From positions 18,304 through 82,303 of the forward strand of contig JAAELT010000305.1 of assembly GCA_024226315.1 (NCBI GenBank): DNA of 64,000 bases, in the 5' to 3' direction. Source of the stretch: a bacterium. Lineage in GTDB: Bacteria > Acidobacteriota > Thermoanaerobaculia > Multivoradales > J023. Both the position numbers and the translations under genes were made by a program. The notes under the pieces are model-generated. The model worked only from the letters and a program-made list of their open reading frames with translations, ran no database searches and had not been told where the DNA came from. This document shows, piece by piece, positions 2,985 to 57,751 of the stretch. The number at the start of each line of letters is the position of its first letter. Position 1 is the first letter of the stretch.

Positions 2985-3245
2985 GGTGGCCTCCTCCAGT
3001 TGAAAGTTCGAGCAGCGCGGGCCAATACGGGTAGCCATCGCAACGCTCCTGTCTGGAGTAGCGCACCGGGGAGGGAGACCTTGTCAGGCGGCATCGAGCT
3101 CGCCTGCCCCGCACCAACGGACGCTTCGCCTGTGGCCCTTATTCAGCTGGGGTCAGGAGGCATGCTGATCGTGCTCTATCATGGGCTCCACCACGACTGC
3201 CCCCAACGCGCCATCGTGCCCACCCGTCAATAGAGGACTAGAAAC

Positions 3246-8610: not shown

Positions 8611-9888
8611 ATGCCCGACGAACCCACCACCACTCCAGTACCGCCTGGCCAACGCACCGGCAACGCGTTCCCGCGCTTCGGAGCGGCCTTCAGGCCGGTG
8701 CCGGAGGTGCCGGGCGAACCGCGGCTGCGGATCACCGGGGCGGTGGAGGAGACGGGCGAGATCGGGCTCGGTGAGCTAGCGGCGCTGCCACGGCGCGAAC
8801 AGGTGAGCAACCTCCACTGCGTGACGACGTGGACGAAGCGGGATCTCCGGTGGAGCGGCTGGCGGCTGGCCGACCTCTATCGCCGGTTGATCGTGCCCCG
8901 CTTTCGGCCGACGCCGGAGGCGCGCTGGCTGGTGCTCTACGGGCTCGACGGCTACCGCTGCAGCCTGCTGCTCGAAGACGCGCTCGAGGGCGGCGTGCTG
9001 GTGGCCGACGAGCTCGACGGCGAGCCGCTGTCGCCCTACCACGGCGCGCCGCTGCGAGTGGTCAGCCCGCGGCAGTATGCCTACAAGAGCATGAAGCACC
9101 TGAGCGGCATCGCGCTACGCGCCGAGCCGGCGCGGCCGCCTCTCGGCCTGGAGCACCGGCGCGGACGGGTGGCGCTCCAGGAGCGACACGCGAGCCTCCC
9201 GGCCTGGCTGGTGCGCCTGCCCTACCGCGCACTGATCGGACCCACGGCCTACCTCCAGGGGCGTGGCCTCGGCAGCCATCATCTCGCCGGCCGGCCGACG
9301 CTGCTCGACGAGGTGATGCCGCAGGCAACGTCGCGCCGGAGGCGCGCCAACGGAACACAGCATCACGAGCTGCATCACCTGTGGCTCGACGCTTCGCCGG
9401 CCGCAGCCTACCGGGCGCTGGGCGAGGTCACCGGCCGCGAGATCCGCCTGCTCATGCCCCTGATGGCCTTGCGGCAGCTGCCGGCGCTCCTGACCGGGCG
9501 CGCAAGGCGCGGCGACCGCGAGATGCCGATCTTCGAAGCGATCGAACGCGGCGGTTTCGCCCGCATCGCCGAAGACCCGGGGCGCGAGATGGTCTTCGGC
9601 GTGGTGGGGCGCTTCTGGAAGCTCACCCGCAATACGCCGATCGAGACAGTGCGCGACCTCGACGGTTTCACGTCCTTCGACCGGCCAGGCTCCGCCCGGG
9701 CGGCGATGAGCTTCCTGGTGCGCGCTGAGGGCCGTGGCTGCCGCCTGATCACCGAGACCCGGATCGACACCACCGACGCTCGCGCCGCCCGCAGCTTCCG
9801 CCGCTACTGGCGTATCGTGCGGCCCGGCAGCGGCTTGATCCGCCGCAGCTGGCTGGCTGCGGTCCGCCGCCGCCTGGCGCGCGAGTAG
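8611..9888 (+). CDS. Molybdopterin-dependent oxidoreductase domain protein (sulfite-oxidase/YedY-like) with ~170-aa C-terminal uncharacterized domain
   Basis: Oxidored_molyb-like stretch LRITGAVEE...HCVTTWTKRDLRWSGW...YHGAPLRVVSPRQYAYKSMKHL. Start chosen at ATG 8611; the track ORF starts at 8482, inside the hipB promoter region. Confidence 0.7.
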   Translation: MPDEPTTTPVPPGQRTGNAFPRFGAAFRPVPEVPGEPRLRITGAVEETGEIGLGELAALPRREQVSNLHCVTTWTKRDLRWSGWRLADLYRRLIVPRFRPTPEARWLVLYGLDGYRCSLLLEDALEGGVLVADELDGEPLSPYHGAPLRVVSPRQYAYKSMKHLSGIALRAEPARPPLGLEHRRGRVALQERHASLPAWLVRLPYRALIGPTAYLQGRGLGSHHLAGRPTLLDEVMPQATSRRRRANGTQHHELHHLWLDASPAAAYRALGEVTGREIRLLMPLMALRQLPALLTGRARRGDREMPIFEAIERGGFARIAEDPGREMVFGVVGRFWKLTRNTPIETVRDLDGFTSFDRPGSARAAMSFLVRAEGRGCRLITETRIDTTDARAARSFRRYWRIVRPGSGLIRRSWLAAVRRRLARE

Positions 9889-9977: not shown

Positions 9978-11828
9978 CTATTGGTCATTGCCGTCCGGGC
10001 AGATGATGCCGCCGATGCTGATCCAGACGGTGGCGGTGTCCGAGCCCCCCGGTTTGTCGCAGACCGTATAGGGGAACGAGTCGAGGCCGACCGCGCAGCC
10101 ATCGGGCGGGGTGTAAGTGACCGCCGTCTTGCCGTTGGGCGCCAGGGTCCCGTACTGGGGAGACCCGGTGGCGCAGACACTGATCGGATCGCCGTCGGGA
10201 TCGACGTCGTTGGCCAGCAAGGTCGCGAACGGGATGTCGATCTTGGTCTCCCACAGGGTGGAAAACCAGTCGTCTGTCGCCATCGGATCCGTGTTCGGCT
10301 GCACGATCTCGACCTTTTCGAACCACACGTCGGGATCGTTATGGCCGTCCTGGACGTTGCGGTCGTCGGACCACTGCACCAGGGCGTCCTCGCCGGCTTG
10401 AATCTGCTGATCGTAGTCTCCGTGATAGCACTGCAACTCGACGAAGAGCGGCGAAGAGACGTCGGACACGCGCACGCTGGGCTCCCAGGTGTCGCCGCCG
10501 TCGAACGAGGTCCGCTGGTAGTAGTCGAACATCAGGTTGCCGGGATCGAGCCGGCGGTCGTACCAGGTGGCCACCACCGTCGTGCCTCCCTGGCCCGTGC
10601 TCAAGGTCGGGAACCACTGATCGTTCGAGGTGGCGTCGTCGTTGAGCCGGACCTCGGGCTGCCAGCTCGCCCCGCCGTTGGTCGACCGGCGGTAGTAGAC
10701 GTCGGCGACGTCGCCGACGTCGAAGCCGTCCGGGTCGTACATGTAGACCACGTGCAACGTACCGTTGTCCGCCACCGCGATCTGCGGCGACGCCAGCACG
10801 CGGATGTTGCCCTCGAGCGCCGGCCGGCCGCAGGTGGCTGAGGCGGCCGAATCCCTGGGCAGAACCTGCCCGGTCATCGGGTTGGCCATCTGGGTGAAGC
10901 TCGCGCCGCCGTTGATCGAGCGCGCGACTTCGACGTCGATCGGACCGAAGCGCCAGTCGACCCAGCGCAGCCAGGCGACGTAGAGATCGCCGTTGGGGGC
11001 GACCGCCGGCCAGGGGGATTGAACGTCGCCGGTGGTGGTGAGCTGCACCGCGGAGGACCAGGTCAAGCCGCCGTTGTCGGAGTAGTTGGCGAACAGCCGG
11101 CCGCTGGCCGCGAAGCCTTTCCAGACGACGTACAGCCGCCCGTAGTAGGGGCTCTCGGGATTGTTGTCGACGGCCAGGAACTCTTTGTCGTCGAGGGAGG
11201 AGACGTGGGTGTTGCCCCGGAAGGCAAAGGTCTGACAATCGTCGGTCGAGCGCCAGACGCCGAGACCGTTCGTTTCGAGAGCGGTGAAGTAGAAGCGGCC
11301 GTCGAGGCGACGCCACACCAGGCTGGGGTCGCCGAAGCTGTTGGCCCCCAGCGCGCCGCGGTCGTCGAACGATGCCCCGCCGTCGGTCGATCGGCTGAAG
11401 CCGGCATAGCCGTTGTCTTCGGCGAAGAAGTGCCAGGCGTCGTTGTAGCCCGAGCAGATGGTGCCGGTGGTCTCGTTGCGGGCGATCGAGGTCTCGTTCT
11501 GGAACTGGGAAAAGCCCTCTTCGCCGGTCGGGTCGTTGACCAGGACGTCGGTGGCGAGAACCTTGGCCGGCGGGGCCTCGCCGGAACCTTCGGGGCCGGG
11601 CGTCCAGAGCTCGTCCTCCCGTCCGCAGGCGATCAGCAGCTTGACGAGCAGACCGTCCATCGTGTCGCGCAGGTCGGGCTCGTCGAGCAGCGCGCAGGCG
11701 GCCGGGTCCACCGCCGCTTGCGCCAGCGCGGTGGTGCCCTGTGCGCCGGCGGCCGGAGCGGCGGGTATCGACGCGATTGCCACGGCAACGGCGGTCAGAA
11801 ACCGGAACTTCTCGAATGGGACTCTCAT
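9978..11828 (-). CDS. Secreted BNR/Asp-box repeat (sialidase-like beta-propeller) protein with C-terminal Ig-like region
   Basis: Signal peptide MRVPFEKFRFLTAVAVAIASIPAAPAAGAQG. Asp-boxes STDGGASF, SINGGASF, STNGGASW, SFDGGDTW. AGGAGG SD 7 nt upstream of ATG 11828. Confidence 0.8.
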   Translation of the reverse strand: MRVPFEKFRFLTAVAVAIASIPAAPAAGAQGTTALAQAAVDPAACALLDEPDLRDTMDGLLVKLLIACGREDELWTPGPEGSGEAPPAKVLATDVLVNDPTGEEGFSQFQNETSIARNETTGTICSGYNDAWHFFAEDNGYAGFSRSTDGGASFDDRGALGANSFGDPSLVWRRLDGRFYFTALETNGLGVWRSTDDCQTFAFRGNTHVSSLDDKEFLAVDNNPESPYYGRLYVVWKGFAASGRLFANYSDNGGLTWSSAVQLTTTGDVQSPWPAVAPNGDLYVAWLRWVDWRFGPIDVEVARSINGGASFTQMANPMTGQVLPRDSAASATCGRPALEGNIRVLASPQIAVADNGTLHVVYMYDPDGFDVGDVADVYYRRSTNGGASWQPEVRLNDDATSNDQWFPTLSTGQGGTTVVATWYDRRLDPGNLMFDYYQRTSFDGGDTWEPSVRVSDVSSPLFVELQCYHGDYDQQIQAGEDALVQWSDDRNVQDGHNDPDVWFEKVEIVQPNTDPMATDDWFSTLWETKIDIPFATLLANDVDPDGDPISVCATGSPQYGTLAPNGKTAVTYTPPDGCAVGLDSFPYTVCDKPGGSDTATVWISIGGIICPDGNDQ

Positions 11829-13943: not shown

Positions 13944-16900
13944 TCAGCCCAGCGCCCGCTCGATCAGCTCTTTCTGCTCTTTCTTGTGCGCCGCCGCCGA
14001 GCCGGTCGCCGGGCTCGCGGACGGTGAGCGGGTGACGCAGTCCAAGGGCCAGCGGCCGAAGGGCCGGCGGCCGAGGCGCAGCAGCAGGAAGCTCCAGGCG
14101 CCCATGTTGCGTGGCTCCTCCTGTACCCAGAAGACGGGGGTGTCGTCGGCGTAGGGTGCGAGCGCCGATTCCAGCGAGTCTTCGGACAGCGGATAGTACT
14201 GCTCGAGCCGCACGATCGCCACGTCCCGGCGCTCGCTCTCGCGGCGCTCTTTCTCGAGGTCGTAGTAGACCTTGCCGCTGGTCACGAGCACTCTTTTCAC
14301 GCCCGCCGGCTCGACCTCGGCGTCGGGGATGACGCGCTGGAAGCTGCCGCCGGCCAGCTCGTCGATCGTCGACACGGCGCGCGGGTGGCGTAGCAGGCTC
14401 TTGGGCGACATGACGATCAGCGGCTTGCGCCACGGCCGCAGCACCTGGCGGCGCAGGCAATGGAAGTACTGGGCCGGGGTGGTGAGGTTCACCACCTGGA
14501 TGTTGTCTTCCGCGGTGAGGTTGAGGTATCTCTCGAGCCGGGCGGACGAATGCTCCGGGCCCTGGCCCTCGAAGCCGTGCGGCAGCAGCATCACCATGCC
14601 GGAGAGGCGCCGCCACTTGTCCTCGCCCGAGGTGATGAACTGGTCGATGATCACCTGGGCGCAGTTCGAGAAGTCACCGAACTGAGCCTCCCACAGGCAT
14701 AGGCCGTCCGGCGTGTCCATGCTGTAGCCATACTCGAAGCCGACGACGCTGACCTCGGACAGCGGGCTGTCCCAGACATGGACCTCGGCCTGGACCTCGG
14801 CCAGGTGTTGCAGGGGCACGTGGAGGGCGCCGGTCTCGAAGTCGTAGAGCACCGCGTGACGGTGGCTGAAGGTGCCGCGGCCCGAGTCCTGGCCGCTGAA
14901 ACGAACCCGGGCACCTTCCGCCGCCAATGACGCCAGGGCCGCGGCCTCGGCGGCCCCCCAGTCGAGCGGCATCTCGCCGGCCGCCATCTTCTGCCGGTTG
15001 CCGAAGAAGCGGCGCAGCTTGCGGTGGACGTTGAAGTCCTCGGGGATGTCGGCACTCTTGCGCAACAGCTTCGCGAGCCGCTCTCTGTTCATCCCGGTCG
15101 CGACCTCCGGCACCTTGGCGTCGGCGCCGCCCACATAGCCTCGCCACAGGCCGCCCCCGGTCTTGACCATCATCGTGTAGGTGAGCTCGTCCTGGGTCTC
15201 CTGCGACTTGCTCAGCTCGTTTTCGAGATCCCGGGTGCGCTCCTCGCGGATCTTCTCCGCCTCCTCGCGGTCGACCCCTCCCAACTCCAGCATGTGCTCG
15301 AGGTAGCTCTCGCGCACCGTCTTGCGGTTGCGGATGACCTCGTAGAGCAGCGGCTGGGTGTAGGACGGCTCGTCGCCCTCGTTGTGGCCGTAGCGGCGGT
15401 AGCAGTACATGTCGATGATCACGTCCTGCTGGAACTCGCGCCGGTAGTCCATGGCGATGCGCACGACATGGGCGACGGCGTCCGGATCCTCGCCGTTGAC
15501 GTGGAAGACCGGCGTCTGGATCATGCGCGCGACGTCGGTGGCGTACTGGGTGGAGCGCCCCATCTCGGGCGAAGTGGTGAAACCGATCTGGTTGTTGACG
15601 ATCACGTGCAGCGTGCCGCCGGTACGGTAGCCCGGTAGGTTGGCCATGTTGAACAGCTCCTGGATCACGCCCTGCCCGGCGAAGGCGGCGTCGCCGTGCA
15701 CCAGGATGCCCAGGCAGCGCCGGTGCTCGGTGTCGCCGAAACGCTCCTGCTTGGCCCGCACTCGCCCCTGCAGCACCGGGTTGACGAATTCCAGGTGGCT
15801 GGGGTTGAAGCACAGCGAGAGGTGCATCTTTCGGCCGCCCTCGAGCTCACGGTCGGAGCTGAAGCCCAGGTGGTATTTGACGTCCCCGCCGCCGATCATC
15901 AGATCGGGGTCGTCGTCCGCGAACTCGCGGAAAACGTCGCGGGGACTCTTTCCCATGATGTTGACCAGCACGTTGAGCCGGCCGCGATGGGCCATGCCCA
16001 GAACCACCTCGTCGACCCCCTGGCCGGCGGCCTCCTCGAGCGCCAGGTCGAGCAGCGGGATCAGGGTCTCGGCCCCTTCGAGCGAGAACCGTTTGGCTCC
16101 CAGGAACTTCTTGTGGATGAACTGCTCGAACAGCTCGGCGTCGGTGAGCTTGGTGAGGATGCGCAGCTTCTCGTCGCGGTCGAGGCGGCGGTGGTGCTCG
16201 GAGTCCTCGACGCGGTTGATCAGCCAGTTCTTGGCGTGCACGTCGTCGATGTGCATGAACTGCACGCCGATCGAGCTGCAGTAAACCGCCTTGAGCAGAG
16301 CCAGGATATCGCGCAGGGTCAGCACGGTGGTACCGGCGATGGTGGTGGAGGAAAACAGGGAATCGAGGTCATTCTCGGACAGGCCCCAGTGCTCGAGCTC
16401 GAGCTCGGGGCTCGAGGTCCGGGTGCGACCGAGCGGGTCGAGCGATGCCAGCAGGTGACCTCTCACCCGGTAGGCGTGGATCAGCCGGTTGACTTTGTCC
16501 TGCCGCGAGCTGCGCTCGCGCAGGCGCGAGGTGAGCATCTGCAGGAAGCCGCGGTTGAGCACCGGCCGGCGCTCGAGCAGGCCCAGCAGATCGAAACGGT
16601 CGATCGACAGTGTCTTGACGTCGCCGCGGGCGACGACGTCGGCCGAGCGCGGCTGCGAGTCGAGCACCGACAGCTCGCCGAACACCTCACCCGCCTGCAG
16701 CATGGCCACGATCTGGTCCTTGCGCCGCACCAGCAGCTCGCCCTCGATCAGCAGGTAGAGGGAGGTGCCCTCGTCGGCCTCGCGGAACAGCACCTGGCCA
16801 CCCGAGAAGCGCTCTTCGACGGCGAGCAGCGCCACCGCCGCCACCTCCTCGGGCGGCAGGCCCCGGAACAGCTTGAGATCCTGCAGAAACTTCACCCGCT

Positions 16901-17276
16901 CGGCGGTTTTGCCGGTGACCGCCACCGGTGGACTGGCCAGCGCGGCAGTGACGGAGGTAGCCGCGCCGACAGATACGGGTCCTACGGCAGCCGCGACCGG
17001 TGGCGCGCCGGCCGCCGGGGCGCTGGCCGCCGGGGCGCCGGCCGGAAGAGCGCCGCTCGGTGGAGCCTCACTCGGCGGGTCGAAGATGCTCGACGCCGAG
17101 AAGCTCGGCCCATCGACCGAGCGCCGGGCCGCCCAGGCGTCACCGTCCTCCGAGGCCCAGCCCTCGAAGTATCGCCGCCAGTCTTCCTCGACCGAGGTCG
17201 GATCCTCGAGGAAGCTGGCGTAGAGCGCCTCGACAAAGGGAAGATTGCTTCCGGCTAGAGGATCGTCGCTGGGCAT
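13944..17276 (-). CDS. sucA: 2-oxoglutarate dehydrogenase E1 component with an inserted cyclic-nucleotide-binding (CAP-effector) domain
   Basis: Collinear with E. coli SucA (VNRLIHAYRVRGHLLASLDPLG, GAKRFSLEG, VVLGMAHRGRLNVL, GDVKYH). Residues ~128-256 form a complete cNMP-binding domain with phosphate-binding cassette FGELSVLDSQPRSADVVA. Confidence 0.85.
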   Translation of the reverse strand: MPSDDPLAGSNLPFVEALYASFLEDPTSVEEDWRRYFEGWASEDGDAWAARRSVDGPSFSASSIFDPPSEAPPSGALPAGAPAASAPAAGAPPVAAAVGPVSVGAATSVTAALASPPVAVTGKTAERVKFLQDLKLFRGLPPEEVAAVALLAVEERFSGGQVLFREADEGTSLYLLIEGELLVRRKDQIVAMLQAGEVFGELSVLDSQPRSADVVARGDVKTLSIDRFDLLGLLERRPVLNRGFLQMLTSRLRERSSRQDKVNRLIHAYRVRGHLLASLDPLGRTRTSSPELELEHWGLSENDLDSLFSSTTIAGTTVLTLRDILALLKAVYCSSIGVQFMHIDDVHAKNWLINRVEDSEHHRRLDRDEKLRILTKLTDAELFEQFIHKKFLGAKRFSLEGAETLIPLLDLALEEAAGQGVDEVVLGMAHRGRLNVLVNIMGKSPRDVFREFADDDPDLMIGGGDVKYHLGFSSDRELEGGRKMHLSLCFNPSHLEFVNPVLQGRVRAKQERFGDTEHRRCLGILVHGDAAFAGQGVIQELFNMANLPGYRTGGTLHVIVNNQIGFTTSPEMGRSTQYATDVARMIQTPVFHVNGEDPDAVAHVVRIAMDYRREFQQDVIIDMYCYRRYGHNEGDEPSYTQPLLYEVIRNRKTVRESYLEHMLELGGVDREEAEKIREERTRDLENELSKSQETQDELTYTMMVKTGGGLWRGYVGGADAKVPEVATGMNRERLAKLLRKSADIPEDFNVHRKLRRFFGNRQKMAAGEMPLDWGAAEAAALASLAAEGARVRFSGQDSGRGTFSHRHAVLYDFETGALHVPLQHLAEVQAEVHVWDSPLSEVSVVGFEYGYSMDTPDGLCLWEAQFGDFSNCAQVIIDQFITSGEDKWRRLSGMVMLLPHGFEGQGPEHSSARLERYLNLTAEDNIQVVNLTTPAQYFHCLRRQVLRPWRKPLIVMSPKSLLRHPRAVSTIDELAGGSFQRVIPDAEVEPAGVKRVLVTSGKVYYDLEKERRESERRDVAIVRLEQYYPLSEDSLESALAPYADDTPVFWVQEEPRNMGAWSFLLLRLGRRPFGRWPLDCVTRSPSASPATGSAAAHKKEQKELIERALG

Positions 17277-20885: not shown

Positions 20886-21941
20886 TTACAGGGCCTGGTA
20901 GCGGTCGATCTGTGCCTCGGTGAGCTGCCTCATGTCTTCACCGTCGCCGTAGGCGCGGTACCACTCGACGACCCAGTCGAGGGTGTCGTGCAATTCCAGG
21001 CGCGCCTTCCAGCCCAACCGTCCCTCGGCCTTGGCCGGATCGAGGCGCAGGAGATGGTGCTCGTGGGGATGGGGGCCGGGGTCGAGCTCGACCTCGCCGC
21101 TCTCGCCCCAGAGCTCCTGGATCCGTTCGACCATGGCGCCCACGGACAGGGGGTCCTCGTCCGGCGGGCCGAAGTTCCAGGCCTCGCTGAAGCGCTCACC
21201 TTCGCGCCACAGGTGCTCGGCGAGGGTCAGGTAGCCGCCGATCGGGTCGAGCACGTGCTGCCAGGGGCGCACCGACTGGGGGTAGCGGATGTAGAGCGGC
21301 CGGCGGTCGAGGAAGGAGCGCATGATGTCGGGCACCAGGCGGTCGCGGCCCCAGTCGCCGCCGCCGATGACGTTGCCGGCACGGGCCGTGGCCACCGCCA
21401 CCGGCGGCTCGGCGGCGGCGAAGAACGAATCCCGGTAGGCGCGGGTCACCAGCTCGGCGCAGCCCTTGCTGCTCGAATAGGGATCGCGCCCGCCCAGCGC
21501 GTCGTCCTCGCGGTAGCCGCGCTCCAGCTCGAGGTTGTCGTAGCTCTTGTCGCTGGTGACCACCACCACCGACCGGGCGCTGGGCTCGAGCCGGATCGCC
21601 TCGAGCAGGTTGACGGTGCCCATCACGTTGCTCGAATAGGTCTCGATCGGGTCTTCGTAGCTGGCCCGGACGATCGCCTGCGCCGCCAGGTGCAGCACCA
21701 CCTCGGGCCGGTGCCGATCGATGACCACGCGCAGATGGTCGAGGTCTCGCAGGTCGCCTTCGATCGATGTCATGCCGTCGGCCACGGCGGCGATCTCGAA
21801 CAGACTCGGCTCGGTGGGCGGCGGCAACGCGTAGCCAACCAGCCGGGCGCCGGCCCGCTGCAGCCACAGCGCCAGCCAGCTGCCTTTGAAGCCGGTGTGC
21901 CCGGTCAGAAGGACCTTCTTGTCGCGCCAGAAAGAGCTCAT
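20886..21941 (-). CDS. rfbG: CDP-glucose 4,6-dehydratase
   Basis: MSSFWRDKKVLLTGHTGFKGSW...YSSSKGCAEL (SDR, extended). Convergent with rfbF, with zero intergenic gap. Confidence 0.85.
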   Translation of the reverse strand: MSSFWRDKKVLLTGHTGFKGSWLALWLQRAGARLVGYALPPPTEPSLFEIAAVADGMTSIEGDLRDLDHLRVVIDRHRPEVVLHLAAQAIVRASYEDPIETYSSNVMGTVNLLEAIRLEPSARSVVVVTSDKSYDNLELERGYREDDALGGRDPYSSSKGCAELVTRAYRDSFFAAAEPPVAVATARAGNVIGGGDWGRDRLVPDIMRSFLDRRPLYIRYPQSVRPWQHVLDPIGGYLTLAEHLWREGERFSEAWNFGPPDEDPLSVGAMVERIQELWGESGEVELDPGPHPHEHHLLRLDPAKAEGRLGWKARLELHDTLDWVVEWYRAYGDGEDMRQLTEAQIDRYQAL

Positions 21942-21954
21942 ATAGCAAAGGTAG

Positions 21955-21982
21955 CAGATCGTCCGAGGATTCGGACGATCTG
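21955..21982. promoter_or_regulatory. Perfect 11-bp-arm inverted repeat CAGATCGTCCG-N6-CGGACGATCTG in the rfbG upstream region, with a second partial copy at 22045..22066 (84 bp away); candidate operator
   Basis: Palindrome read directly from the sequence; it sits 14 bp upstream of the rfbG start codon. Confidence 0.35.
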
Positions 21983-22095
21983 ATAGGCCGGTGGGATGGG
22001 CCAAGAAGTCGAACGCCGAAGGCTTCGAGTTCTTGGGGCGCTAGCAGATCGTCCGCGGATCGGACAGCCCGGCCTGGCTGGCGACCGGGAGACCT

Positions 22096-22451
22096 CGGAT
22101 TCAGGGTGAATCGGACTCTCCGGAAAAGCAGAGACCTCGGATTCAGGGTGAATCGTAACCTCCGGCAAATCAGGAGGGTGCGATTCACGCTGAATCGCAA
22201 CCTCCGGCAAATCAGGAAGGCGCGATTCACACTGAATCGTGACTACCAAAGGTAACCGAGGTTGCGATTCACGCTGAATCGCGACCCTCCTTTCGTAACC
22301 GATGGTGCGATTCACGCTGAATCGCGCCTGCGTCGCGTAACCGAGGTTACGATTCACGCTGAATCGTGCCTTCGACGCGTAACCGAAGTTGCGATTCACG
22401 CTGAATCGCGACCACCACACGTAACCGGAGTTGCGATTCACGCTGAATCGC
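22096..22451. repeat. Tandem array of 9 units with 42-43 bp period; each unit has a 19-bp palindromic core GCGATTCACGCTGAATCGC plus a ~23-bp partly conserved, partly variable spacer; two unit subfamilies (units 1-3 vs 4-9)
   Basis: Unit starts at 22096, 22138, 22180, 22222, 22264, 22307, 22349, 22391 and 22433. 8-bp arms GCGATTCA/TGAATCGC. Spacers share ...cgtaaccgaggtt with only a ~10-11 bp hypervariable core. Confidence 0.8.
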
Positions 22452-22769
22452 GACTCCGGCGTGATTTCGTTGGGTGAGTCGAGGAAGACGATCGAGTAGC
22501 CTGAGGTTCAGTCACCTGGCGTCGCCGTTCTGGCTCTCTCCGGGAACCGGACCGACCAGATAGAACAGCATAGTGTCGGAAACGGGCGAAACACGGATCG
22601 TGGCAATCGAGCCGACCGTGAGTTCGCGTCAGAGGAGGAGGTGCGAGATGCAGGTCAGAACCGGTGTGAATGCTGGGTATGGACCCTCGGTTGAGCCCGC
22701 AGGCTGAGTCCGGCGCCCGTGAGGGTGCGGCCGTTATGGCCGTGCCCTCACAAGGTCGACTAGAATGAA

Positions 22770-23937
22770 GTGAACAGATTGATTGAACAGGAGGAGGGAC
22801 CCTTTTTGCCGCACAACACCGAGTACGCCCAGCGGCTACTTCGCGAGCTGGACCTACCGGGTAATGCAGAGCAGATCCTGGAGAATCCCAAGTACGCGGA
22901 TCCTGGGTTCGCCGCTGCCTTCTACGAGCACTGCGAAGAGGTGCTCTTCCATTCTCCCGAGGACGCCCTGAAGCTCGCCAAAGTTGCACTGCGGCTTGCG
23001 CACTCTCTGCCAGAAGGCACGGGGCCAGAGGGCAAAAGAAAGCACCTCGAGCTGTTCGTCAAAGCGTGCTGGATCGTGGGGAGCGCCTATCGAAAGTTCG
23101 GCCGGACGAACGAGGCGGAGGGACCGTACCGAAAGGCGCTGGGTATCGCAGGCATCTCGGATGCCATCAAGGCTGCGCTTTATCTGAGGCTTGCGATCTT
23201 GCGGGTGTCACAACAGCGGTACGAGGACGCCTTGAAACTGATCGATCAGGCGGAGAGGATCTACCGATCCGAGAAGGACAGCAAGGGTTTGGGGCATGCA
23301 TTCGCCACGCGAGGGTACACCTACAACGAATCCGGTCGGTTCGCGGAGGCGATCTCACAATTCACCCGGGCGCTGTCGGCGATTGATCCACACCTGGATC
23401 CAGAAAGCGGACGCTTCCACTACTCCGCAACGCACAACGTGGGCTTTGCGATCTCTCAGTGTCGAAGCCCCGAAGCCATCGGCGCTGCGCAGATTCACAT
23501 TCGAGAAGCCCGGAGACTCCTCGGCGATCGGCGACGAAGTGTCCCGAGGTACAAGCTCTATTGGTATCGAAGGGAAAGCCCTGATCAAGCTCGGATCAAC
23601 GCAGTTGGGCGAACGTCGTTTACTCCGCGCACTCAAGGGACTCCTCATCCTCCGCGCGATCTTCGAATCTGCTCTTGTGTGTCTTGACCTTTCGGTCCTG
23701 TTGCGCGACGAGGAGCGTTGGAACGAGCTTGAAGAGGTCGCCGGAGAAACCTTCCGTCGGTTCGAGGAGCTTTCGGCCGACTCGGAGACAATCGCGGCGC
23801 TGTCTCTCTGGATGGAAGCTGTGAAAGCGCGCGAACTTGGGGATCAGCTCATCTCAGACGTCAGAGCCCAGCTCTCTGTGCGGATGCGCCGCCAGCCTCC
23901 CCCCGGCACTGTTCGACGTCGTTGGAAGCGGCGCTGA
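22770..23937 (+). pseudogene. Frameshifted paralog of the helical-repeat protein 26684..27817 (two ORFs 22770..23687 and 23296..23937, joined by a +1 frameshift near 23571-23578)
   Basis: Upstream ORF aligns with the paralog through ...RSVPRYKLYW. The downstream ORF (other frame) aligns from IEG... to the Arg-rich C-terminus (LSADSETIAALSLWMEAVKARELGDQLISDVRAQL vs LSADTESIAVLSLWMDAVRAQKLEDQVIADVRQKL). An extra T in tattggTatcgaaggg explains the shift. Confidence 0.6.
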
Positions 23938-24111
23938 AGCCCCCACCTCGTCGGAGATGAGGGCCGGGGCGCCCTACCAGTCGAGATCCCGGATCTTCTC
24001 CACGTGCTCCCCGGCACCGATCCCCGGAGATACCGCTCCCGGATCTGCTCCGGGGATCGCCAAAATGGGGCAGGACATGGTACCGTAACGTATCCAAAGA
24101 CGGAGGCAGCT

Positions 24112-24408
24112 ATGACCCAATTGACCATCAGCCAAGACATTCGCCCCATCTCTGATCTCAAGGCGAGGGGGAGCGAGATCGTCACCCAGGCGGCGAACAC
24201 GGGTCGCCCTGTCGTTCTGACCCGTCACGGCCGAAGCGTGGCCGTGGTATTGGCCGTCGACGAGTATGAACGTCTTCAGCAGGCGGCGGAACGGGGTGCT
24301 CTGGTGGAGGCCCTTCGGGAAGGGGAGCGGGATGTGGAAGCCGGCCGCGTTCTGACCCACGAGGAGATGCGGGCCAAGTGGCTCGCCGGAGAATCCGAGG
24401 ACGGATGA
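24112..24408 (+). CDS. yefM: Phd/YefM-family antitoxin
   Basis: MTQLTISQDIRPISDLKARGSEIVTQAANTGRPVVLTRHGRSVAVVLAVDEYERL. cGGAGG SD upstream. Confidence 0.8.
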   Translation: MTQLTISQDIRPISDLKARGSEIVTQAANTGRPVVLTRHGRSVAVVLAVDEYERLQQAAERGALVEALREGERDVEAGRVLTHEEMRAKWLAGESEDG

Positions 24409-24409
24409 C

Positions 24410-24712
24410 GTGGAGGTCGTCTGGTCGCGGGCAGCCGATCGAGACCTGGCTCGGATCTACTCCTACCTGGAACCGAGGAGTCTCCGGGCGGTTCGCGGCC
24501 TTCTGCGGCGTCTATTCAAGACGATAGATCTGTTGGCTGAGATGCCCCGGATGGGGACGGTCGCCGATCTCGGACTGGAGAGGGAATACCGACAGCAGGT
24601 GGTCGAGCACTACAAGATCTTCTACTACGTCGAGGAAGAGCGCCTCGTCATCGTGCGACTCTGGGACACCCGCCAAGACCCCACGAAGTTCTTCGTCCCC
24701 CTTACACCTTGA
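24410..24712 (+). CDS. parE: ParE/RelE-family toxin
   Basis: GTG start 2 nt after the yefM stop. VVWSRAADRDLARIYSYL...EMPRMGTV...YRQQVVEHYKIFYYVEEERLVIVRLWDTRQDP is typical ParE. Confidence 0.75.
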   Translation: MEVVWSRAADRDLARIYSYLEPRSLRAVRGLLRRLFKTIDLLAEMPRMGTVADLGLEREYRQQVVEHYKIFYYVEEERLVIVRLWDTRQDPTKFFVPLTP

Positions 24713-24715
24713 GCA

Positions 24716-24853
24716 TCCGGCCTGCAACTCGCCCAGGGTGACCGCGGATAGGTGAAGCTCGTCGTTGTCGATGCCCTCGAGCCAGGCGATCACGGCTCCG
24801 TGAGGGCGTGGACGCCTGAGCTCCGAGATGACGTTCGTGTCGAGCAGATACAA
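24716..24853 (-). pseudogene. VapC (PIN-domain toxin) N-terminal fragment; remainder displaced by or overlapping the convergent parE
   Basis: MYLLDTNVISELRRPRPHGAVIAWLEGIDNDELHLSAVTLGELQAG is a canonical PIN N-terminus (~46 aa). The rest of the 113-aa ORF is antisense to parE and lacks the distal PIN acidic residues. Confidence 0.5.
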
Positions 24854-24857
24854 GAGC

Positions 24858-25145
24858 CTACTCGAAGACCTCCGGCGACCGGCGGCGCCAGCGCCGCCGC
24901 GAAGGGACCGGGATTTCGGCGCGGGGAGAATCGGCGAGCAGCAGCTCTTTCAGCGTCGGTCCGGCGGCTCTTCGCAGGCGGCGCCAATCCTCCACCGGTA
25001 CCAGGACCGCGGCCTCGACGCCCCGGCGGGTCACGATCTGCGGGCCTTCGCGGAGGCTGGCCTCCAACAATCGGCTGAAGTGCGTTTTCGCATCGTGGAC
25101 CGGCCACCGCTTCGGGCTCGTTTCTCCGGCCATGAAGTCCTCCAA
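24858..25145 (-). CDS. Phd/YefM-type (VapB-like) antitoxin
   Basis: WPVHDAKTHFSRLLEASLREGPQIVTRRGVEAAVLVPVEDWRRL; directly upstream of the vapC fragment. Confidence 0.65.
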   Translation of the reverse strand: MEDFMAGETSPKRWPVHDAKTHFSRLLEASLREGPQIVTRRGVEAAVLVPVEDWRRLRRAAGPTLKELLLADSPRAEIPVPSRRRWRRRSPEVFE

Positions 25146-25251: not shown

Positions 25252-25758
25252 TCATGACGCCGGGGTGACCGAGGTGGCGGGGTGACCGAGGGGGGTGACC
25301 GAGGTGGCTGGCACCGCGGACAGCAGCGCCTTGGCCGAAGCGACTGGATCTCCGTCGACGGAAGCCAGCCCCAGGGCTTCGTCGACAAGACCTACGCTCT
25401 CTTCTTCACGGTCACGGAGCGCAGTGTACCGAGCGATCCGAAGCAGGACGGAGGCCCGTTCTTCCTCAACGTTTCTTAACAGCTCAAGAGCGGCCTCCTC
25501 GGAGCCAGCGGCGAAGAGCGCCTCGACTGCGGCATTCAGGGCCTCGGGGTCTGCTGTCTGCGTTGCCATGTCGGTAACGCGGACGACCAGTTCGGCTCGC
25601 GCCTGTGGGTCTGGGGTCAGCTTTGCGCCGGGGCTGCAAGCGGCAAGAATTGGGATGATGAGCAGTCCGACCCATCTGATTTCATTGACGCTACAGTTGC
25701 GGCCTCCAGATCCATCGCGGTTACCGCGGATGAATTCGCGTTCCGAGATTGTATGCAT
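25252..25758 (-). CDS. Hypothetical lipoprotein
   Basis: Strong SD GGGAGGA 4 nt before the ATG; lipobox ILAAC. The 3' end lies inside a dispersed GC-rich repeat and encodes ...SAVPATSVTPLGHPATSVTPAS. Confidence 0.5.
   Translation of the reverse strand: MHTISEREFIRGNRDGSGGRNCSVNEIRWVGLLIIPILAACSPGAKLTPDPQARAELVVRVTDMATQTADPEALNAAVEALFAAGSEEAALELLRNVEEERASVLLRIARYTALRDREEESVGLVDEALGLASVDGDPVASAKALLSAVPATSVTPLGHPATSVTPAS
25262..25327. repeat. GC-rich dispersed repeat, locus A (GTGACCGAGGTGGC x3, ending GGGTGACCGAGGTGGCTGGCACCGCGGACAGCAGC); exact 35-bp match at 31824..31858
   Basis: Direct sequence comparison; both copies lie at the 3' ends of minus-strand genes. Confidence 0.75.
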
Positions 25759-26496
25759 GGGATCCTCCCTTCGCTAATTGATCCACGAGTTTGCCTTTCG
25801 GCAGCTCGGCGGTCTTGGAGTCCTTCGTGGCGGCCAGCGTCGCGGAGGAAGCGAGGACCCGTGGCTTTGCGGCACCGGCTTTTGCCGGCTGTGCCTTTTC
25901 GAGGCGCTCGGGTGTCGTTGTTATCGAGACAGCACGAACCTCATTACTAGAGATCATGCTGTCTTCTACATAAGTAGTGACGCCTAACCGCCAGTTATCT
26001 CACCTACATCTAAGAAAAATCCACGAGATCGACTGGGGCTAGAAGCCGGGCGGGCGTCGCAAGACCCGAGCGGCTTCGTGATCGCACCCCCATCAGTCTG
26101 GAGAGGGCGGCGCCACTTAAGGTGCCGGCCGTCTCGGCAAACAGAGTAGCACACCGACCCGATCGACCAGCGGTCACACGCCGAACCGAGCTGATCCCAG
26201 TCCGCGAGCTACCGCGGACACCCTCTGCGAACGGCTTCCGAGGCGCAGTCCGTGTCTCAATGGCGCTAATGAGCGCGCCTTGGGGCTTCTTGGGCGCACC
26301 GGGTCCGCAGCTCTCTATGGAGCGGAGCGGTAGCAGCAAAATCGTTCTGGGTACTTTCTGGTCTGGCTCGGCGAGCGCCTCTTCAACAGCTACGACGGCG
26401 CCCGCGCCGGCCCCGCGCGGCTGCAAGGCAGCCCAACGTCGCTCGGCACGTGAGGTCTCGGCGGAGGAAAGCAACCTGGTGGGAACTCCACGCCAC

Positions 26497-26527: not shown

Positions 26528-26683
26528 ACGGTACGCTTCGACGAACAGCCGATACGCCTGCTTCAACTGCTTGCGCACCGCCTTCGTCGCGGCGTGAACT
26601 GCCGGCGCGGGCGACTTCTTCGAGCGGGCTACGAAGCGGGTGGCACCTGGGGAGCACCTGGGGAGCACCTGGGGAGCACCTGA

Positions 26684-27817
26684 TCAGCGCCGCCTGTAGC
26701 TGCCCCGTGCGCCTGGCAGTGGCTGGCGGCGCATCCGTCTTTCGAGCTTCTGCCTGACGTCCGCGATGACCTGATCTTCGAGCTTCTGCGCTCGTACGGC
26801 ATCCATCCACAGCGACAGGACCGCGATCGATTCGGTATCAGCTGAGAGCAGCCGAAACCGACCGAAAGTATCGGCCGCAAGCTCCTTCAGATCGCCCCAG
26901 CGCTCCTGCCGACAGAGAACCTCAGACAGGCTCAGTCCAACCAGAGCCAGCTCGAACGGCGCTCCCACGTCGAGGAAGCCTTCCCTGGCTCGCCAGAAGA
27001 GCCGCTCACCGTGCCGCTCGAGGCAGACCTTGACGTAGATCATCCCCTCGATCCAGGTGAGCTTGTGCTTGGGCAAGCTGCGCCGGTGGTTGCGCAGTCT
27101 CCGCTTCGCCTCGCGGATCCAGCGTAGGGCGGATTTCACTGCTCCATCATCGTCGGTCTTCGTGAACGCCAGCGCGAGACAGTGAATCGCGGAATGGTAG
27201 GTCCGGGTGTTCTTGTTCTTGGTCAACTGCAATGCTTCGCCGAAGTGCAGGATGGCCTCGGCAAACTGCGAGGATTGGCTGAAGGCGATCCCCTGTATGA
27301 CGAGGGCCTCTCCGAGGTATTCGTCATGTCGCTGCGTTCGGTAGGTCTTGATTGCTCCGCGGCACAGTTCGAAGGCTTCATCGAACTTCCTTTGCGTGAT
27401 CCGAAGCACCGCCAAGCGATGATGGAGGTTCGATTCCTCAAGGGTTGGAACATCCTCCCGTTCGCAGATCTGCAAGGCAGTTTGGAACGCTGCTTCTGCC
27501 TCGTCGAGCGTTCCGGCACCTCGAAGAGCACCTCCGTACACCGCGTTCGAGCGGACGCGTAACTCTCGGTGGATACGCTGCCCTTCTGATCCGCTGCGCT
27601 CCGGTACCAGCTCGGACAGTCTGGGCGCGAGAACCGCGAGCTTCAGGCCCTTCTCCGGATGATGATAAAGAACATCGTCGCAATGGCCGAGGTAGAGCCA
27701 GAGAAAAGTCTCATCCCAGTAACGAGGCTGCTCAAGCAGAGTGCCAACGTCGACCGGCAGCTCTCGGAGGAGCTTCTGGGCATACTTCTTCGAATGTGGC
27801 AACGACTCCGACTCCAA
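26684..27817 (-). CDS. Uncharacterized alpha-helical repeat (TPR-like) protein with Arg-rich C-terminal tail (RRMRRQPLPGARGSYRRR)
   Basis: Intact 377-aa ORF; paralog of the frameshifted gene at 22770..23937. Confidence 0.65.
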   Translation of the reverse strand: MESESLPHSKKYAQKLLRELPVDVGTLLEQPRYWDETFLWLYLGHCDDVLYHHPEKGLKLAVLAPRLSELVPERSGSEGQRIHRELRVRSNAVYGGALRGAGTLDEAEAAFQTALQICEREDVPTLEESNLHHRLAVLRITQRKFDEAFELCRGAIKTYRTQRHDEYLGEALVIQGIAFSQSSQFAEAILHFGEALQLTKNKNTRTYHSAIHCLALAFTKTDDDGAVKSALRWIREAKRRLRNHRRSLPKHKLTWIEGMIYVKVCLERHGERLFWRAREGFLDVGAPFELALVGLSLSEVLCRQERWGDLKELAADTFGRFRLLSADTESIAVLSLWMDAVRAQKLEDQVIADVRQKLERRMRRQPLPGARGSYRRR

Positions 27818-28273
27818 GTGTTCTGGCCAGAGAATAGCTCATTTAGGGGCAGATGGTGAAGGGGCGCGGTGAACGGGCCGCGCCCCTTACGATCAGCCGT
27901 CTCAGCCGACAGGCGGGATATTCGCGCCGACTCCTGCATTGACGCCAGTACTGATGCGCATGCTCCGTCCTCCATTCAACCGAGCTTCGCGGGTGGCGGG
28001 ATTGCCCCTCCTTCGTCTCGGTTCCCATGAGGACGATAGCTGACCGAACGGTACGAAAAGGCGTCAATAGCCCGGTTCCCAGGTGACGAAAAAGCCTACC
28101 GCTCGGTCGGTAGTTACACATTTAGCCGCACCTTTACTGAATAGAAACCATTGCCGGTTCGATCTCGACGCAAAACCTCTGAAATGAGATCACATTCCGC
28201 CCTGACGAGAACTTTGTCTGCGTGGTAGATGGGAACGGCGCTCCGGAACACGTTTTCGCTGCTAGCCTGACTC

Positions 28274-31742: not shown

Positions 31743-31868
31743 CTTCGTTCCTGATCCGCGGGAATGCCTGGCGAGGCAGGCGGGCTCGCCTTGCGGGTGA
31801 CCGAGGTGGCTGGCACCGCGGACGGGTGACCGAGGTGGCTGGCACCGCGGACAGCAGCACCTGTCGTC

Positions 31869-32582
31869 TCATCGTGCCAGGAAGTTCTTCGTCACCTCTT
31901 CGAGGGCGCGACCGGTCTCCTTATCGAGTCCTTTGAACGCGATGCCTGCTCGACACACTCCCTCCTCCGAAACCTCCCGGATCAGCTGGCGGTTGGCGAC
32001 CCGACCGGCCATCTGGAGCGACCGGTGACCGGCGCGCAGCTCCATGTCCAGGGTGGAACCGACGTCCAGAAGCAGCTTGGTCTCGATCAGCATGCCAGAG
32101 AAGCTGATCACCGAGACCACGAAGTCGTGGTACTCGCTGACCTTCGCCGGCCCCTCCAGGGTCACTTTGAAGCGTCCGTTGATGCGCTTCTCCGCGTCGA
32201 TCACCATGTGGTGCTGGAGGAAGGTGAGAACCTCCAGGGCCTTTTCCTCGAGCGCGCTCCGAAACTCCAAACCACTCTGGTAGACCGGAATGACTTCGCT
32301 GTTGGACCGCTCGGTGCGCACCAGGTGACTCCATCGAACGTCCGATTTGAGCTCCAGGCCCTCGTCGCCTTTCTGGAGAGTGATCTCGTACTCACTTCCG
32401 ATCTCCAGCGGCCTCTGGCACTCGACGGCGAGTCCGGTGAGGCTCATGTTGAAGACCTCGACCTCGAAGTGCAGCGGGAATCTCCCGCGTACGTCCCGAA
32501 CCTGGTAGCGAGGATGCTGCCGTCGGAGCTTGTAGCGAGGATGCCGCCGCCGTCCTGATCCCGACTTCGAGGGGTCGCTCAT
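31869..32582 (-). CDS. Tandem PilZ-domain protein (putative c-di-GMP receptor)
   Basis: RRRHPRYKLRRQHPRY...FNMSLTGLAVE, and a second PilZ-like half RINGRFKV...ISFSGMLIE. Confidence 0.7.
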   Translation of the reverse strand: MSDPSKSGSGRRRHPRYKLRRQHPRYQVRDVRGRFPLHFEVEVFNMSLTGLAVECQRPLEIGSEYEITLQKGDEGLELKSDVRWSHLVRTERSNSEVIPVYQSGLEFRSALEEKALEVLTFLQHHMVIDAEKRINGRFKVTLEGPAKVSEYHDFVVSVISFSGMLIETKLLLDVGSTLDMELRAGHRSLQMAGRVANRQLIREVSEEGVCRAGIAFKGLDKETGRALEEVTKNFLAR

Positions 32583-33817: not shown

Positions 33818-33945
33818 ACCATGCCGGACCTGTTTCGCCCTTACAGGGCGATCCTCTCGGGGCTCCCGCAACCCGGGGCTGCGCCCCGGGCTTTACGATT
33901 TCGCCCCTTCGGGGCGCAGACATGGCAGCCTGAAGAAGCTCTGCC

Positions 33946-57625: not shown

Positions 57626-57751
57626 GAAGCGAGGGTTCCCCGGCGATCGAACTGCCTCTTCGCCAGCGAAGCGAGGGTTCCCCGGCGATCGAACTGCCTC
57701 TTTACCAGCGAAGCGAGGGTTCCCCGGCGATCGAACTGTGTCTTCACGGAG
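57626..57751. repeat. Tandem repeat, 3 x 42 bp (GAAGCGAGGGTTCCCCGGCGATCGAACTGCCTCTTCGCCAGC), each unit an internal inverted repeat GCGAAG...CTTCGC
   Basis: Unit starts at 57626, 57668 and 57710; downstream of the argC stop. Confidence 0.7.

Follow-up and report, generated by a model that had tools for sequence, protein, structure and literature searches.

The 64,000-nucleotide (nt) stretch of contig JAAELT010000305.1 analyzed here (referred to throughout as the window) comes from an acidobacterial assembly, GCA_024226315.1, and carries, between a gene for an rfbG-like sugar dehydratase and a TPR gene, a tandem array whose nine units each hold one copy of the palindromic core GATTCA-N3-TGAATC. 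The reading we favor, tentatively and at a probability of roughly 0.4, is that the array represents a dispersed, modular set of binding sites for a ParB-type helix-turn-helix (HTH) dimer encoded elsewhere, comparable in design to sopC of plasmid F. We infer binding by a protein, the likeness of that protein to ParB and the role of the resulting complex from the arrangement and recurrence of the core. The array is not a dedicated operator of the rfbG-like gene or of the TPR gene.

The array is genuine and extends from 22089 to 22460, with nine units placed head to tail at a period of 42–43 bp (starts at 22089, 22131, 22174, 22216, 22258, 22301, 22343, 22385 and 22427; each unit 42 or 43 nt), as Tandem Repeats Finder, a repeat search and counts of the core all confirm. 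Tandem Repeats Finder returned two overlapping rows of period 42, at 22089–22215 (3.0 copies) and 22140–22460 (7.6 copies), together with a period-84 row over the array (score 322), and the repeat search found in-register copies at steps of 42, 42, 85, 42 and 42. An earlier note on this DNA had started the array at 22096, which is the same array read in a register offset by 7 nt. The core lies at the center of every unit, and successive core centers are 42, 42, 42, 42, 43, 42, 42 and 42 bp apart, so the phasing claimed in that note holds, with a palindrome far more conserved than its surroundings. At up to two mismatches the 15-bp core GATTCANNNTGAATC occurs nine times in the window, always inside the array and nowhere outside it, against 1.1 occurrences expected by chance, and none of 100 shuffled sequences contained nine copies. 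The 19-bp palindrome that had been assigned to each unit, GCGATTCACGCTGAATCGC, is exact in five of the nine (units 3, 5, 6, 8 and 9), whereas units 4 and 7 carry two differences and units 1 and 2 contain cGGATTCAGGGTGAATCGg, with a GGG center and arms of 6 bp; at up to three mismatches this 19-mer gives 12 matches compared to 0.03 expected by chance.

Column by column, the window units have an invariant core and much more variable flanks, and the linkers between units have diverged almost to randomness. The proposed division of each unit into about 31 conserved and 10–11 hypervariable positions is roughly right for units 5–9, but part of the variable segment, of which there is one of 9–12 nt per unit, is complementary to the left flank and extends the palindrome, to 12–16 bp in single cases, and the stretches of units 5 and 7 have counterparts in the homologous arrays described below. 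The repetitive open reading frames (ORFs) at 21938–22441 (−) and 22262–22477 (+), already called spurious, are present and are best described as non-coding artefacts of the period, because the register of the repeat shifts at the 43-nt units. The source is a short-read contig of a metagenome-assembled genome (MAG), and the unit count could therefore be misassembled, though each unit has its own linker.

Searches beyond the window indicate a low-copy family rather than a common repeat. The exact 19-mer is not a common dispersed repeat, because in 185,579 species genomes it occurs only as seven singletons in unrelated phyla, as many as chance alone would give. When metagenomes were scanned for pairs of cores 20–35 nt apart, 56 contigs were returned; most of the low-GC matches are unrelated satellites, and eight high-GC contigs (L022, L032, L037, L039, L043, L044, L062 and L067) carry clearly homologous arrays with the common core, the 42-nt period (with steps of 84 or 85 where one unit has decayed) and recognizable linkers, such as '...gact(a/t)(c/t)caaaggtaacc(a)gaggt...'. 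The arrays of the family are 0.35–0.5 kb in size, intergenic, 70–75% identical to the window array and have unrelated flanks at no fewer than five sites; the window array and the L043 element agree at 75% of positions over 219 nt (E 6e-33). Six L043-type copies (L022, L032, L039, L043, L062 and L067) are 86–88% identical to one another and have the same order of unit types and a conserved tail of about 100 nt; they differ in unit number, and the identity extends over the linkers and the non-repeat tail. The tail, in which a small co-varying hairpin at the end is followed by GTGTTTGTG, is missing from the window array. Because the 'variable' stretches of window units 5 and 7 match those of the L043-type units D and E, these units are old positional counterparts and not recent duplicates. 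The window lineage retained or homogenized its palindromes (GCGATTCACGCTGAATCGC), and two positions decayed in the L043 type.

The settings of these arrays are diverse. The L043 array lies between a BamB/esterase gene and a TPR-TetR fusion gene, and in L067 an integrase gene at the left replaces the BamB/esterase gene; elsewhere the neighbors are RhuM (L039), a porin (L037), a hemerythrin gene (L032), and PadR with a permease (L062). One homologous array is 160 bp from an integrase gene and another adjoins an IS3 transposase. In L043, L022, L039 and L037 the array starts 57–79 nt past the stop of a co-oriented gene, and in three contigs it lies between convergent genes, where there is therefore no promoter to regulate. 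The array-bearing relatives are Acidobacteriota-like, with sigma-factor and TPR homologues in common with the window. We found no terminal inverted repeats (TIRs), target-site duplications (TSDs) or common target at eight array junctions, no single dispersed core in the roughly 60 kb that flank the other arrays, no tRNA gene adjoining the arrays as an integration target, and no Y1_Tnp domain among the scanned proteins next to arrays, the only such match, a faint one, being 5 kb from a locus without an array (L013). A REP-like palindrome, (C)AAAGCTGGGAGCGCAGGCATCCTGCCTGCTC, is present in several copies on either side of the arrays in L062 and L032, and thus array-bearing genomes also have a separate dispersed palindrome family.

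A further array, in L031, is independent: at least seven units of 41 or 42 bp share the core TGATTCACGGTGAATCG but have unrelated linkers, and the array comes after genes for a deaminase and PTH2, the latter truncated, on a contig of the Chloroflexota/Anaerolineae, where a neighboring protein is 86–92% identical to Anaerolineae sequences. Its palindrome is limited to 15–17 bp without an extended stem, and so a long hairpin is not required by the family. The occurrence of the core and the four-turn period in two phyla that have nothing else of the array in common argues that both are functionally constrained; the simplest reason would be a protein that binds duplex DNA as a dimer and has to find its sites on a single helix face. 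Near the corresponding site of a related contig, L076, there is an unrelated array of 42 bp × 5.3 (11344–11565); homology between it and the L031 array was considered and dropped, the similarity being non-significant (p = 0.15).

Conservation within the family was assessed over 52 distinct units from nine arrays. TTC and TGAA are invariant in 52/52 units, A16, A20, C21 and T28 are kept in at least 90%, and the rest of the 6+6 core in at least 87%, while the three central bases and the linkers vary. A core more conserved than its context argues for sequence-specific recognition, and a purely structural constraint is disfavored since structure alone would let the core co-vary. Outside the core the stem extensions do co-vary. 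Columns 14/30 are CG in 18 units, GC in 17 and other in 17, and columns 13/31 are AU in 22, GC in 7, GU in 7 and CG in 4; pairing holds in 76% of cells in register compared to 25–41% with the partner slid, and the covariation score of 0.209 compares with 0.161 in shuffles, none of 500 of which scored as high. Two points qualify this signal: the units share a common descent, and symmetric variation of the same kind at a co-varying position is seen in the partition-associated sites considered below. Predicted folding is strong on both strands of the array (−201 and −194 kcal/mol, z about −11). In the window six of nine units are more stable on the plus strand through T.G pairs, and a call of the plus strand as the RNA strand was tried from these wobble pairs and rejected, because the family as a whole did not follow: it has 51 G.U versus A.C pairs favoring the plus strand and 80 favoring the minus strand, and 18 units more stable on plus versus 33 on minus. 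The lack of a consistent strand bias argues against one functional RNA strand. Against Rfam 15 there was no match at the gathering score, only chance-level matches with E values of 0.5–3.5.

A link to partition sites comes from the remaining contigs of the metagenome scan. Apart from the homologous arrays and L031, L016 and L035, the high-GC match groups have their cores 28–140 bp upstream of partition genes. In L036, L047 and L054 three sites, TGATTCACCGTGAATCA / CGATTCACCGTGAATCG, are spaced 34–37 bp apart and lie 55–140 bp upstream of parA-parB; L038 and L049 have two sites 45–105 bp upstream of another parA-parB pair, the ParA 50% and the ParB 43% identical to those of the L054 group; and L041, L065, L053, L023 and L050 have two sites 28–80 bp upstream of ssb and a gene for a ParB-like protein of 490 aa. 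Pfam recognizes ParB_N and HTH_ParB in the proteins associated with these sites, and in the three unrelated contig groups the site consensus, YGATTCA-N3-TGAATCR, is the consensus of the array core. The ParB of L054 is closest to plasmid ParBs of Planctomycetota, and plasmids of that phylum have the same arrangement but use other palindromes, TGTTACGCSGCGTAACA four times in pSINAC01 and TTGCACNGTGCA twice in pSINAC02. Canonical parS is TGTTNCACGTGAAACA, with the half-site GTTTCAC, and the array half-site GATTCAC agrees with it at six of seven bases; canonical parS itself was not found in the window. The recurrence of this core ahead of parAB operons elsewhere makes a dimeric DNA-binding protein the leading candidate for what would recognize the array. 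The earlier proposal of sites for such a protein survives in this form, without the tie to an rfbG or TPR promoter.

In the mechanism we envisage, each 42-bp unit would present YGATTCA-N3-TGAATCR as a putative site for one dimer of a ParB-type, or similarly recognizing, HTH protein. Since 42 bp corresponds to four helical turns, the nine sites fall on one face of the helix, and the array could for that reason nucleate a single large nucleoprotein complex, as sopC does with SopB. Candidate roles for such a complex include segregation or organization of the chromosome or of an island, a function as the remnant, serving or hijacked plasmid centromere of an element integrated in the accessory island, and titration of a plasmid ParB. 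Two points of context were counted in favor: the accessory stretch that the array borders holds two toxin-antitoxin modules, typical plasmid-stabilization cargo, and one homologous array has an integrase gene 160 bp away. Several others weigh against binding by a ParB-type dimer. The partition-associated sites number two or three at spacings of 34–45 bp, compared with nine at 42 bp in the array, and the array palindrome has a 3-bp center (1 bp if read as 7+1+7) where canonical parS has none. A shared core is weak evidence for a shared protein family, because closely related plasmid ParBs use quite different palindromes. The L043-type copies appear to have spread as units in the way of mobile repeats, since their 86–88% identity covers linkers and tail, and the co-varying stem extensions fit hairpin formation. 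It would also be unusual for true chromosomal parS arrays to be dispersed, and tblastn with two ParA and two ParB queries found no match in the window or in the array-bearing loci, nor did Pfam detect such proteins among the neighbors. A more specific version, in which the arrays form a widespread and so far undescribed chromosomal class of 'orphan centromeres' in Acidobacteriota and Chloroflexota, that is, phased 42-bp parS-like arrays that spread as small modules and recruit a ParB-family (CTP-switch) protein encoded elsewhere, seems to us rather unlikely.

The alternative that deserves most attention, which we regard as possible yet doubtful, is a selfish or neutral mosaic intergenic repeat of the BOX, REP/BIME or NIME kind, composed of a head unit, a variable number of hairpin units of about 42 nt and a tail. 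Such an element would spread by transposition or recombination and be tolerated mainly at the 3′ ends of genes, its hairpins serving as a handle for a mobilizing enzyme or having no function, and any termination, mRNA 3′ protection or recombination and integration hot spot would be incidental. The six L043-type copies, 86–88% identical through linkers and tail between unrelated flanks and different in unit number and composition, are what this explanation predicts, as are the positions shortly past stop codons or between convergent genes, the stems of 12–16 bp with two-sided changes that preserve pairing, the copies beside an integrase gene and an IS3 transposase, and the absence of the array from syntenic loci in relatives, although those loci differ from the window by more than the element itself. 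The D-type units moreover have 'GTAA(CC)' directly 5′ of the stem, reminiscent of the GT[AG]G found ahead of REP stems. It is harder to reconcile with junctions that lack TIRs, target duplications and a common target, with the absence of single dispersed cores from the window and from the other flanks, and of Y1/HUH transposases from the surroundings of any array, and with units that are all in direct orientation, unlike those of BIMEs; the same 12-nt core in two phyla with unrelated linkers, and again at par operons, is unexpected for lineage-specific selfish repeats. The two explanations are not exclusive, as a mobile module with binding sites would fit both. The earlier note had allowed for a common dispersed REP or miniature inverted-repeat transposable element (MITE) family without positional association to promoters, and part of this stands: the family is dispersed in related genomes, but it is low-copy and the 19-mer is no common REP.

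That the array acts after transcription, as a multi-hairpin RNA sponge or scaffold, or as a 3′ untranslated region or leader that blocks exonucleases or tunes read-through, we think unlikely. The strong folding of both strands, the co-varying stem extension, the plus-strand advantage of six window units, the co-oriented gene that precedes five homologous arrays and the L043-type tail with its terminal hairpin and GTGTTTGTG would all suit such an RNA. Family-wide there is nonetheless no strand preference, the minus strand being slightly favored; the core sequence is invariant instead of co-varying; some centers form 7+1+7 palindromes that are unable to close as an RNA loop; Rfam holds no matching family; and the window array faces the 5′ end of the rfbG-like gene, upstream of a decayed cassette. 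A consensus scan of 21700–23000 detected no promoter-like or terminator-like signal, and sigma-54, extracytoplasmic function (ECF) sigma and sigma-70 promoters read by eye near the array gave no convincing match and were set aside. A local operator array for the divergent rfbG and small-ORF/TPR promoters, the main idea of the earlier note, has become distinctly improbable despite its location between divergent genes, the phasing of its palindromes on one helix face, and two array loci (the window and L043/L067) that adjoin very rare TPR-family genes, one of which, in L043, encodes a C-terminal TetR HTH domain. The syntenic epimerase/164-aa gene/TPR loci of L009, L010 and L074 have no core at all; in L043 and L067 the array sits between convergent genes, downstream of the TPR-TetR gene; TPR gene 1 of the window is frameshifted and lacks its conserved upstream element; and the neighbors of the other arrays are unrelated. 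A link between TetR and the array was likewise rejected, because nothing in the TPR proteins of the window corresponds to the TetR part of the L043 protein, and another TPR-TetR gene (P0015) has no array.

Simple replication slippage within a decaying duplicated cassette, giving a functionless minisatellite, is in our view very unlikely. The number of units does differ between homologous arrays, as does their type, so that this side of the hypervariable-minisatellite alternative raised before is partly right; the neighboring cassette is degenerate, and unrelated 42-bp repeats occur in the window (57626–57745) and in L076. Yet the units are old, with counterparts in arrays only 70–75% identical, and while their linkers diverged almost to randomness the core was kept in 9/9 and 52/52 units, and core and period recur in another phylum. 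An iteron-like element, another suggestion of the earlier note, did not survive, for there is no rep gene among the neighbors and no AT-rich block, local GC is 0.59, and the homologous arrays lie between ordinary chromosomal genes. A guide-RNA array, whether CRISPR or TIGR-like, is excluded by anatomy and neighbors, in agreement with the original judgment that this is not CRISPR. Conserved and variable stretches do alternate regularly, and TIGR stem-loop arrays also hold palindromes (PMC12045711), but there is a single variable segment of 9–12 nt per unit, where CRISPR spacers are far longer; this segment is conserved between L043-type copies and so is not unique to each array; and the neighbors are the dehydratase and TPR genes, with no Nop-domain gene among them and no cas gene found nearby.

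What the array would mean depends on which of these readings is correct. If proteins are loaded on the arrays, these would be centromere-like elements without a coupling to par genes, scattered over chromosomes of little-studied phyla and able to move as small modules, which would bear on the evolution of ParB-type proteins and their sites and on the stabilization or exclusion of islands and plasmids. Should they form a class of orphan centromeres, a new nucleoid-organizing or segregation system would be conceivable, as would decoys that titrate the ParB of incoming plasmids, an incompatibility-type anti-plasmid defense, and integrated elements could hitch-hike on the partition system of the host. 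If they are selfish mosaic repeats, Acidobacteriota gain a BOX/BIME-like family of use in annotation (spurious ORFs), in checking MAG joins and in strain typing. Under either reading the tempting but wrong idea of a dedicated operator of an O-antigen-type gene is removed.

Table 1. Coordinates of the array, its cores and the adjoining features (positions in the window).
Feature	Position	Strand or unit	Evidence and remarks
Tandem array, nine units	22089–22460	no strand	Tandem Repeats Finder, repeat search, unit table and alignment
Core 1, GATTCAGGGTGAATC	22098–22112	unit 1	6-bp arms, GGG center; pattern search
Core 2, GATTCAGGGTGAATC	22140–22154	unit 2	Pattern search
Core 3, exact 19-mer GCGATTCACGCTGAATCGC	22180–22198		Stem can lengthen to GGAGGgTGCGATTCA/TGAATCGCAaCCTCC
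Core 4, GCGATTCACACTGAATCGT	22222–22240		CAC center as in most L043-type units
Core 5, exact 19-mer	22264–22282		Positional match to L043-type unit D, linker gaccctcctttc vs aaccccctatcc
Core 6, exact 19-mer	22307–22325		Counterpart unit D′ without palindrome in L043-type arrays
Core 7, ACGATTCACGCTGAATCGT	22349–22367		Outer pair altered on both sides, G-C to A-T
Core 8, exact 19-mer	22391–22409		
Core 9, exact 19-mer	22433–22451		Longest extended palindrome, CCGGAGTTGCGATTCA-CGC-TGAATCGCGACTCCGG, at 22425–22459
rfbG-like NAD-dependent sugar 4,6-dehydratase gene	20886–21941	−	Left neighbor, divergent from array; Pfam GDP_Man_Dehyd 3.5e-34, Epimerase 8.8e-31
Spacer, rfbG-like start codon to array	21942–22088		Inverted repeat with 15-nt arms at 21952–21985; partial direct copy at 22042–22060 (TAGCAGATCGTCCG)
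Degenerate or truncated 5′ leader of TPR cassette 1	22461–22647	+	Alignment, pattern search
19-codon ORF, MQVRTGVNAGYGPSVEPAG*	22648–22707	+	Followed by GC-rich hairpin 22719–22751; belongs to TPR cassette, not array
TPR gene 1, two frames	22770–23937	+	ORFs; Pfam TPR_12; tblastn pieces 22806–23564 and 23608–23874

The genes on either side of the array are those described before, the rfbG-like dehydratase gene and the TPR gene (Table 1). No record was found by exact-protein look-up for either the rfbG-like protein or P0001. In the spacer before the array, a comparison by eye of L009, L010 and the window paralogue shows a motif that resembles GGCTAGCAGCGAAA, found beside the 164-aa gene of the relatives, a gene that is missing here. 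The leader of cassette 1 can be aligned to those of other cassettes from about 22540 (GGGAACCGG ... GGCAATC ... GGAGGA), and the box1/box2 element that is conserved upstream of cassettes is missing or degenerate here. TPR gene 1 has a frameshift between 23564 and 23608 and is either a pseudogene or the product of an assembly error. An intact, inverted paralogue of the cassette occupies 27961–26684 (−), with its TPR gene at 26684–27817 (−), and is neighbored by genes for a 163-aa protein and an ECF-type sigma factor; the interval that separates the cassettes holds two toxin-antitoxin pairs along with a c-di-GMP-I riboswitch, and GC falls from about 0.68 to 0.59–0.65 across 22–29 kb. The contig is chromosomal, as sucA, argH and serS are present, and SerS is 72–78% identical to sequences labeled Acidobacteriota or Thermoanaerobaculia, in agreement with a match to the Acido-Lenti-1 RNA at 33872–33916 (+) (40.3 bits; gathering score 37) between a glycosyltransferase and a polysaccharide-export gene.

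Homologues of the TPR proteins are very rare, with 19 matches in 5.8 billion proteins, and a scan of JGI metagenome proteins with the TPR alignment gave no relatives. The homologue contigs (L008–L013 and L074) have the same layout of small ORF, hairpin and TPR gene, and L009, L010 and L074 are syntenic with the window, an epimerase and the 164-aa gene preceding a divergent TPR cassette; none of these contigs has a copy of the core or a 42-bp repeat. Every gene of this rare TPR family is preceded by a 19-codon ORF of conserved pattern, M-x-[IV]-x-T-[GTA]-x-x-AG-...-P-x-G-stop, which has a Shine-Dalgarno sequence to itself and a co-varying GC-rich hairpin after it (window 22648–22707 (+) and 27961–27902 (−); L008 ~9823–9882; L009 ~2328–2387; L010 ~3113–3172; L013 ~5826–5885; and two tandem copies on the minus strand of L043, ~5305–5246 and ~5056–4997). 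In P0006 and P0007 the TPR module is joined to an anti-sigma zf-HC2 domain, and in L043 and P0015 to a TetR domain at the C-terminus. The ORF and TPR gene together look like a peptide-plus-TPR-sensor cassette or a leader-peptide attenuator, of which our search found no description.

Upstream of the small ORFs of the cassettes lies a conserved element of about 75 nt, which consists of TTGGCAAAT, TCAGAGGTTTTGCG (box1), a short ATCG...CGAT inverted repeat, GATATTCG and TCAGTGAGnnTGCG (box2), at 28182–28127 (−) in the window, 9406–9460 and 9618–9673 in L008, 2123–2178 in L009, 2907–2961 in L010 and 2266–2321 in L012. The two 14-nt boxes are spaced 41–42 nt apart in six of six instances, RNAalifold pairs box 1 with box 2 with a few compensatory changes, and a coding role for the region was rejected in view of its stops and non-triplet indels; the element could be a promoter/operator or a structured RNA. 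Birth of the array by local amplification of this element (TCAGAGGTTTTGCG/TCAGTGAGnnTGCG), to which unit 9 aligns weakly, was our initial favorite and was dropped because homologous arrays turned up at unrelated loci; what may be left of the element is at most the stretch that follows unit 9 (gatttcgttgggtgag).

Other features of the window were recorded in passing. Two type II toxin-antitoxin pairs are placed back to back at 24004–25145, Phd/YefM with ParE (+) and Phd/YefM with a VapC-like PIN protein (−); the PIN ORF overlaps the end of the ParE gene, matches the N-terminal part of the PIN model only and may be truncated. The c-di-GMP-I riboswitch (25797–25905 (−), 50.7 bits) precedes a 168-aa ORF without a Pfam match (25252–25758 (−)), and a PilZ-domain gene lies at 31869–32582 (−). 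A motif, GTGACCGAGGTGGC(TGGCACCGCGGACAGCAGC), is tandemly duplicated in one orientation at 25265–25308 and 31797–31852, flanking the 25.3–31.8 kb stretch where the sigma gene and the intact TPR cassette lie; the motif recurs at 2081–2094 in L022, about 110 nt past the array, and the copies may be direct repeats at island borders. A perfect tandem repeat of 11 bp × 3.6 (GCACCTGGGGA) at 26643–26682 ends 2 nt short of the stop codon (26684) of the intact TPR gene. The unrelated 42-bp repeat at 57626–57745 (2.9 copies, 93% matches, a GCGAGG...CTTCGC hairpin per unit) sits in the gap past a gene that ends at 57571. A 2-oxoglutarate dehydrogenase E1 gene (13944–17276 (−)) encodes an unusual fusion in which residues 155–236, near the N-terminus, form an inserted cyclic-nucleotide-binding domain, and a low-GC gene (0.54–0.57) at 45661–48582 (−) joins an nSTAND1 NTPase to WD40 repeats and is probably a horizontally acquired STAND-type defense or signaling gene.

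Compared with known systems, the array is a centromere-like or mosaic repeat array without a match in Rfam, among 72,556 plasmids (blastn with the window array, the L043 element and the L031 array) or, by its core strings, in any paper of a full-text literature search. CRISPR loci have repeats of 23–47 nt, unique spacers of similar length and cas genes. The window array resembles CRISPR and TIGR arrays in its hairpin-capable conserved repeats regularly interspaced with short variable segments, but the segment is too short, single in each unit and not array-specific, and cas and tas (Nop) genes are missing. TIGR units hold two spacers of 8–12 nt with box C/D flanks, next to a Nop-domain Tas gene (PMC12045711). 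Iteron-type origins combine iterons beside a rep gene with an AT-rich unwinding region and DnaA boxes, and here neither a rep gene among the neighbors nor an AT-rich block was found.

BOX elements of Streptococcus pneumoniae, REP/BIME sequences and the neisserial NIMEs are modular intergenic repeats with hairpin subunits, dispersed, often at the 3′ ends of genes, and possible hot spots of integration or recombination. The array family resembles them in its hairpin-forming modules, locus-variable copy number, unrelated flanks and frequent location at gene 3′ ends, and the six L043-type contigs, with ordered modules, a variable unit count, several loci and different flanking genes, have the makeup of a BOX-like or MITE element. 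It differs in being low-copy, with none else in 64 kb, in its direct units and strict 42-bp phasing, in a core common to two phyla and to par-operon sites, and in the absence of any RAYT, transposase, TIR or TSD found; the marks of REP/BIME, namely high-copy dispersal (in the 64 kb or the 185,579 species genomes), alternating orientation and a RAYT near the arrays, were not observed. Type Ib-like par operons of plasmids, such as those of Singulisphaera pSINAC01 and pSINAC02, offer odd-centered palindromes of about 17 bp, 35–50 bp apart, and the L054-type par loci use exactly the array core; in the operons, however, two to four sites stand directly before parA on a plasmid, compared with nine on a chromosome without par genes here. 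Relative to ParB/parS in general, the array core resembles the parS half-site, and the identical core is found elsewhere in two or three phased copies upstream of parAB, whereas the palindrome has a 3-bp (or 1-bp) center. A close parallel in overall design is sopC of plasmid F, which has twelve 43-bp repeats, each with a 16-bp inverted repeat bound by SopB (PMC3177203). The array differs from sopC in being chromosomal with no parA or parB adjacent or in the window, in belonging to a family with several loci per metagenome, and in its strongly diverged linkers where sopC units are near-identical. The two nonetheless have the same plan of direct repeats of about four helical turns, 43 bp × 12 in sopC and 42–43 bp × 9 here, with one short inverted repeat in each unit.

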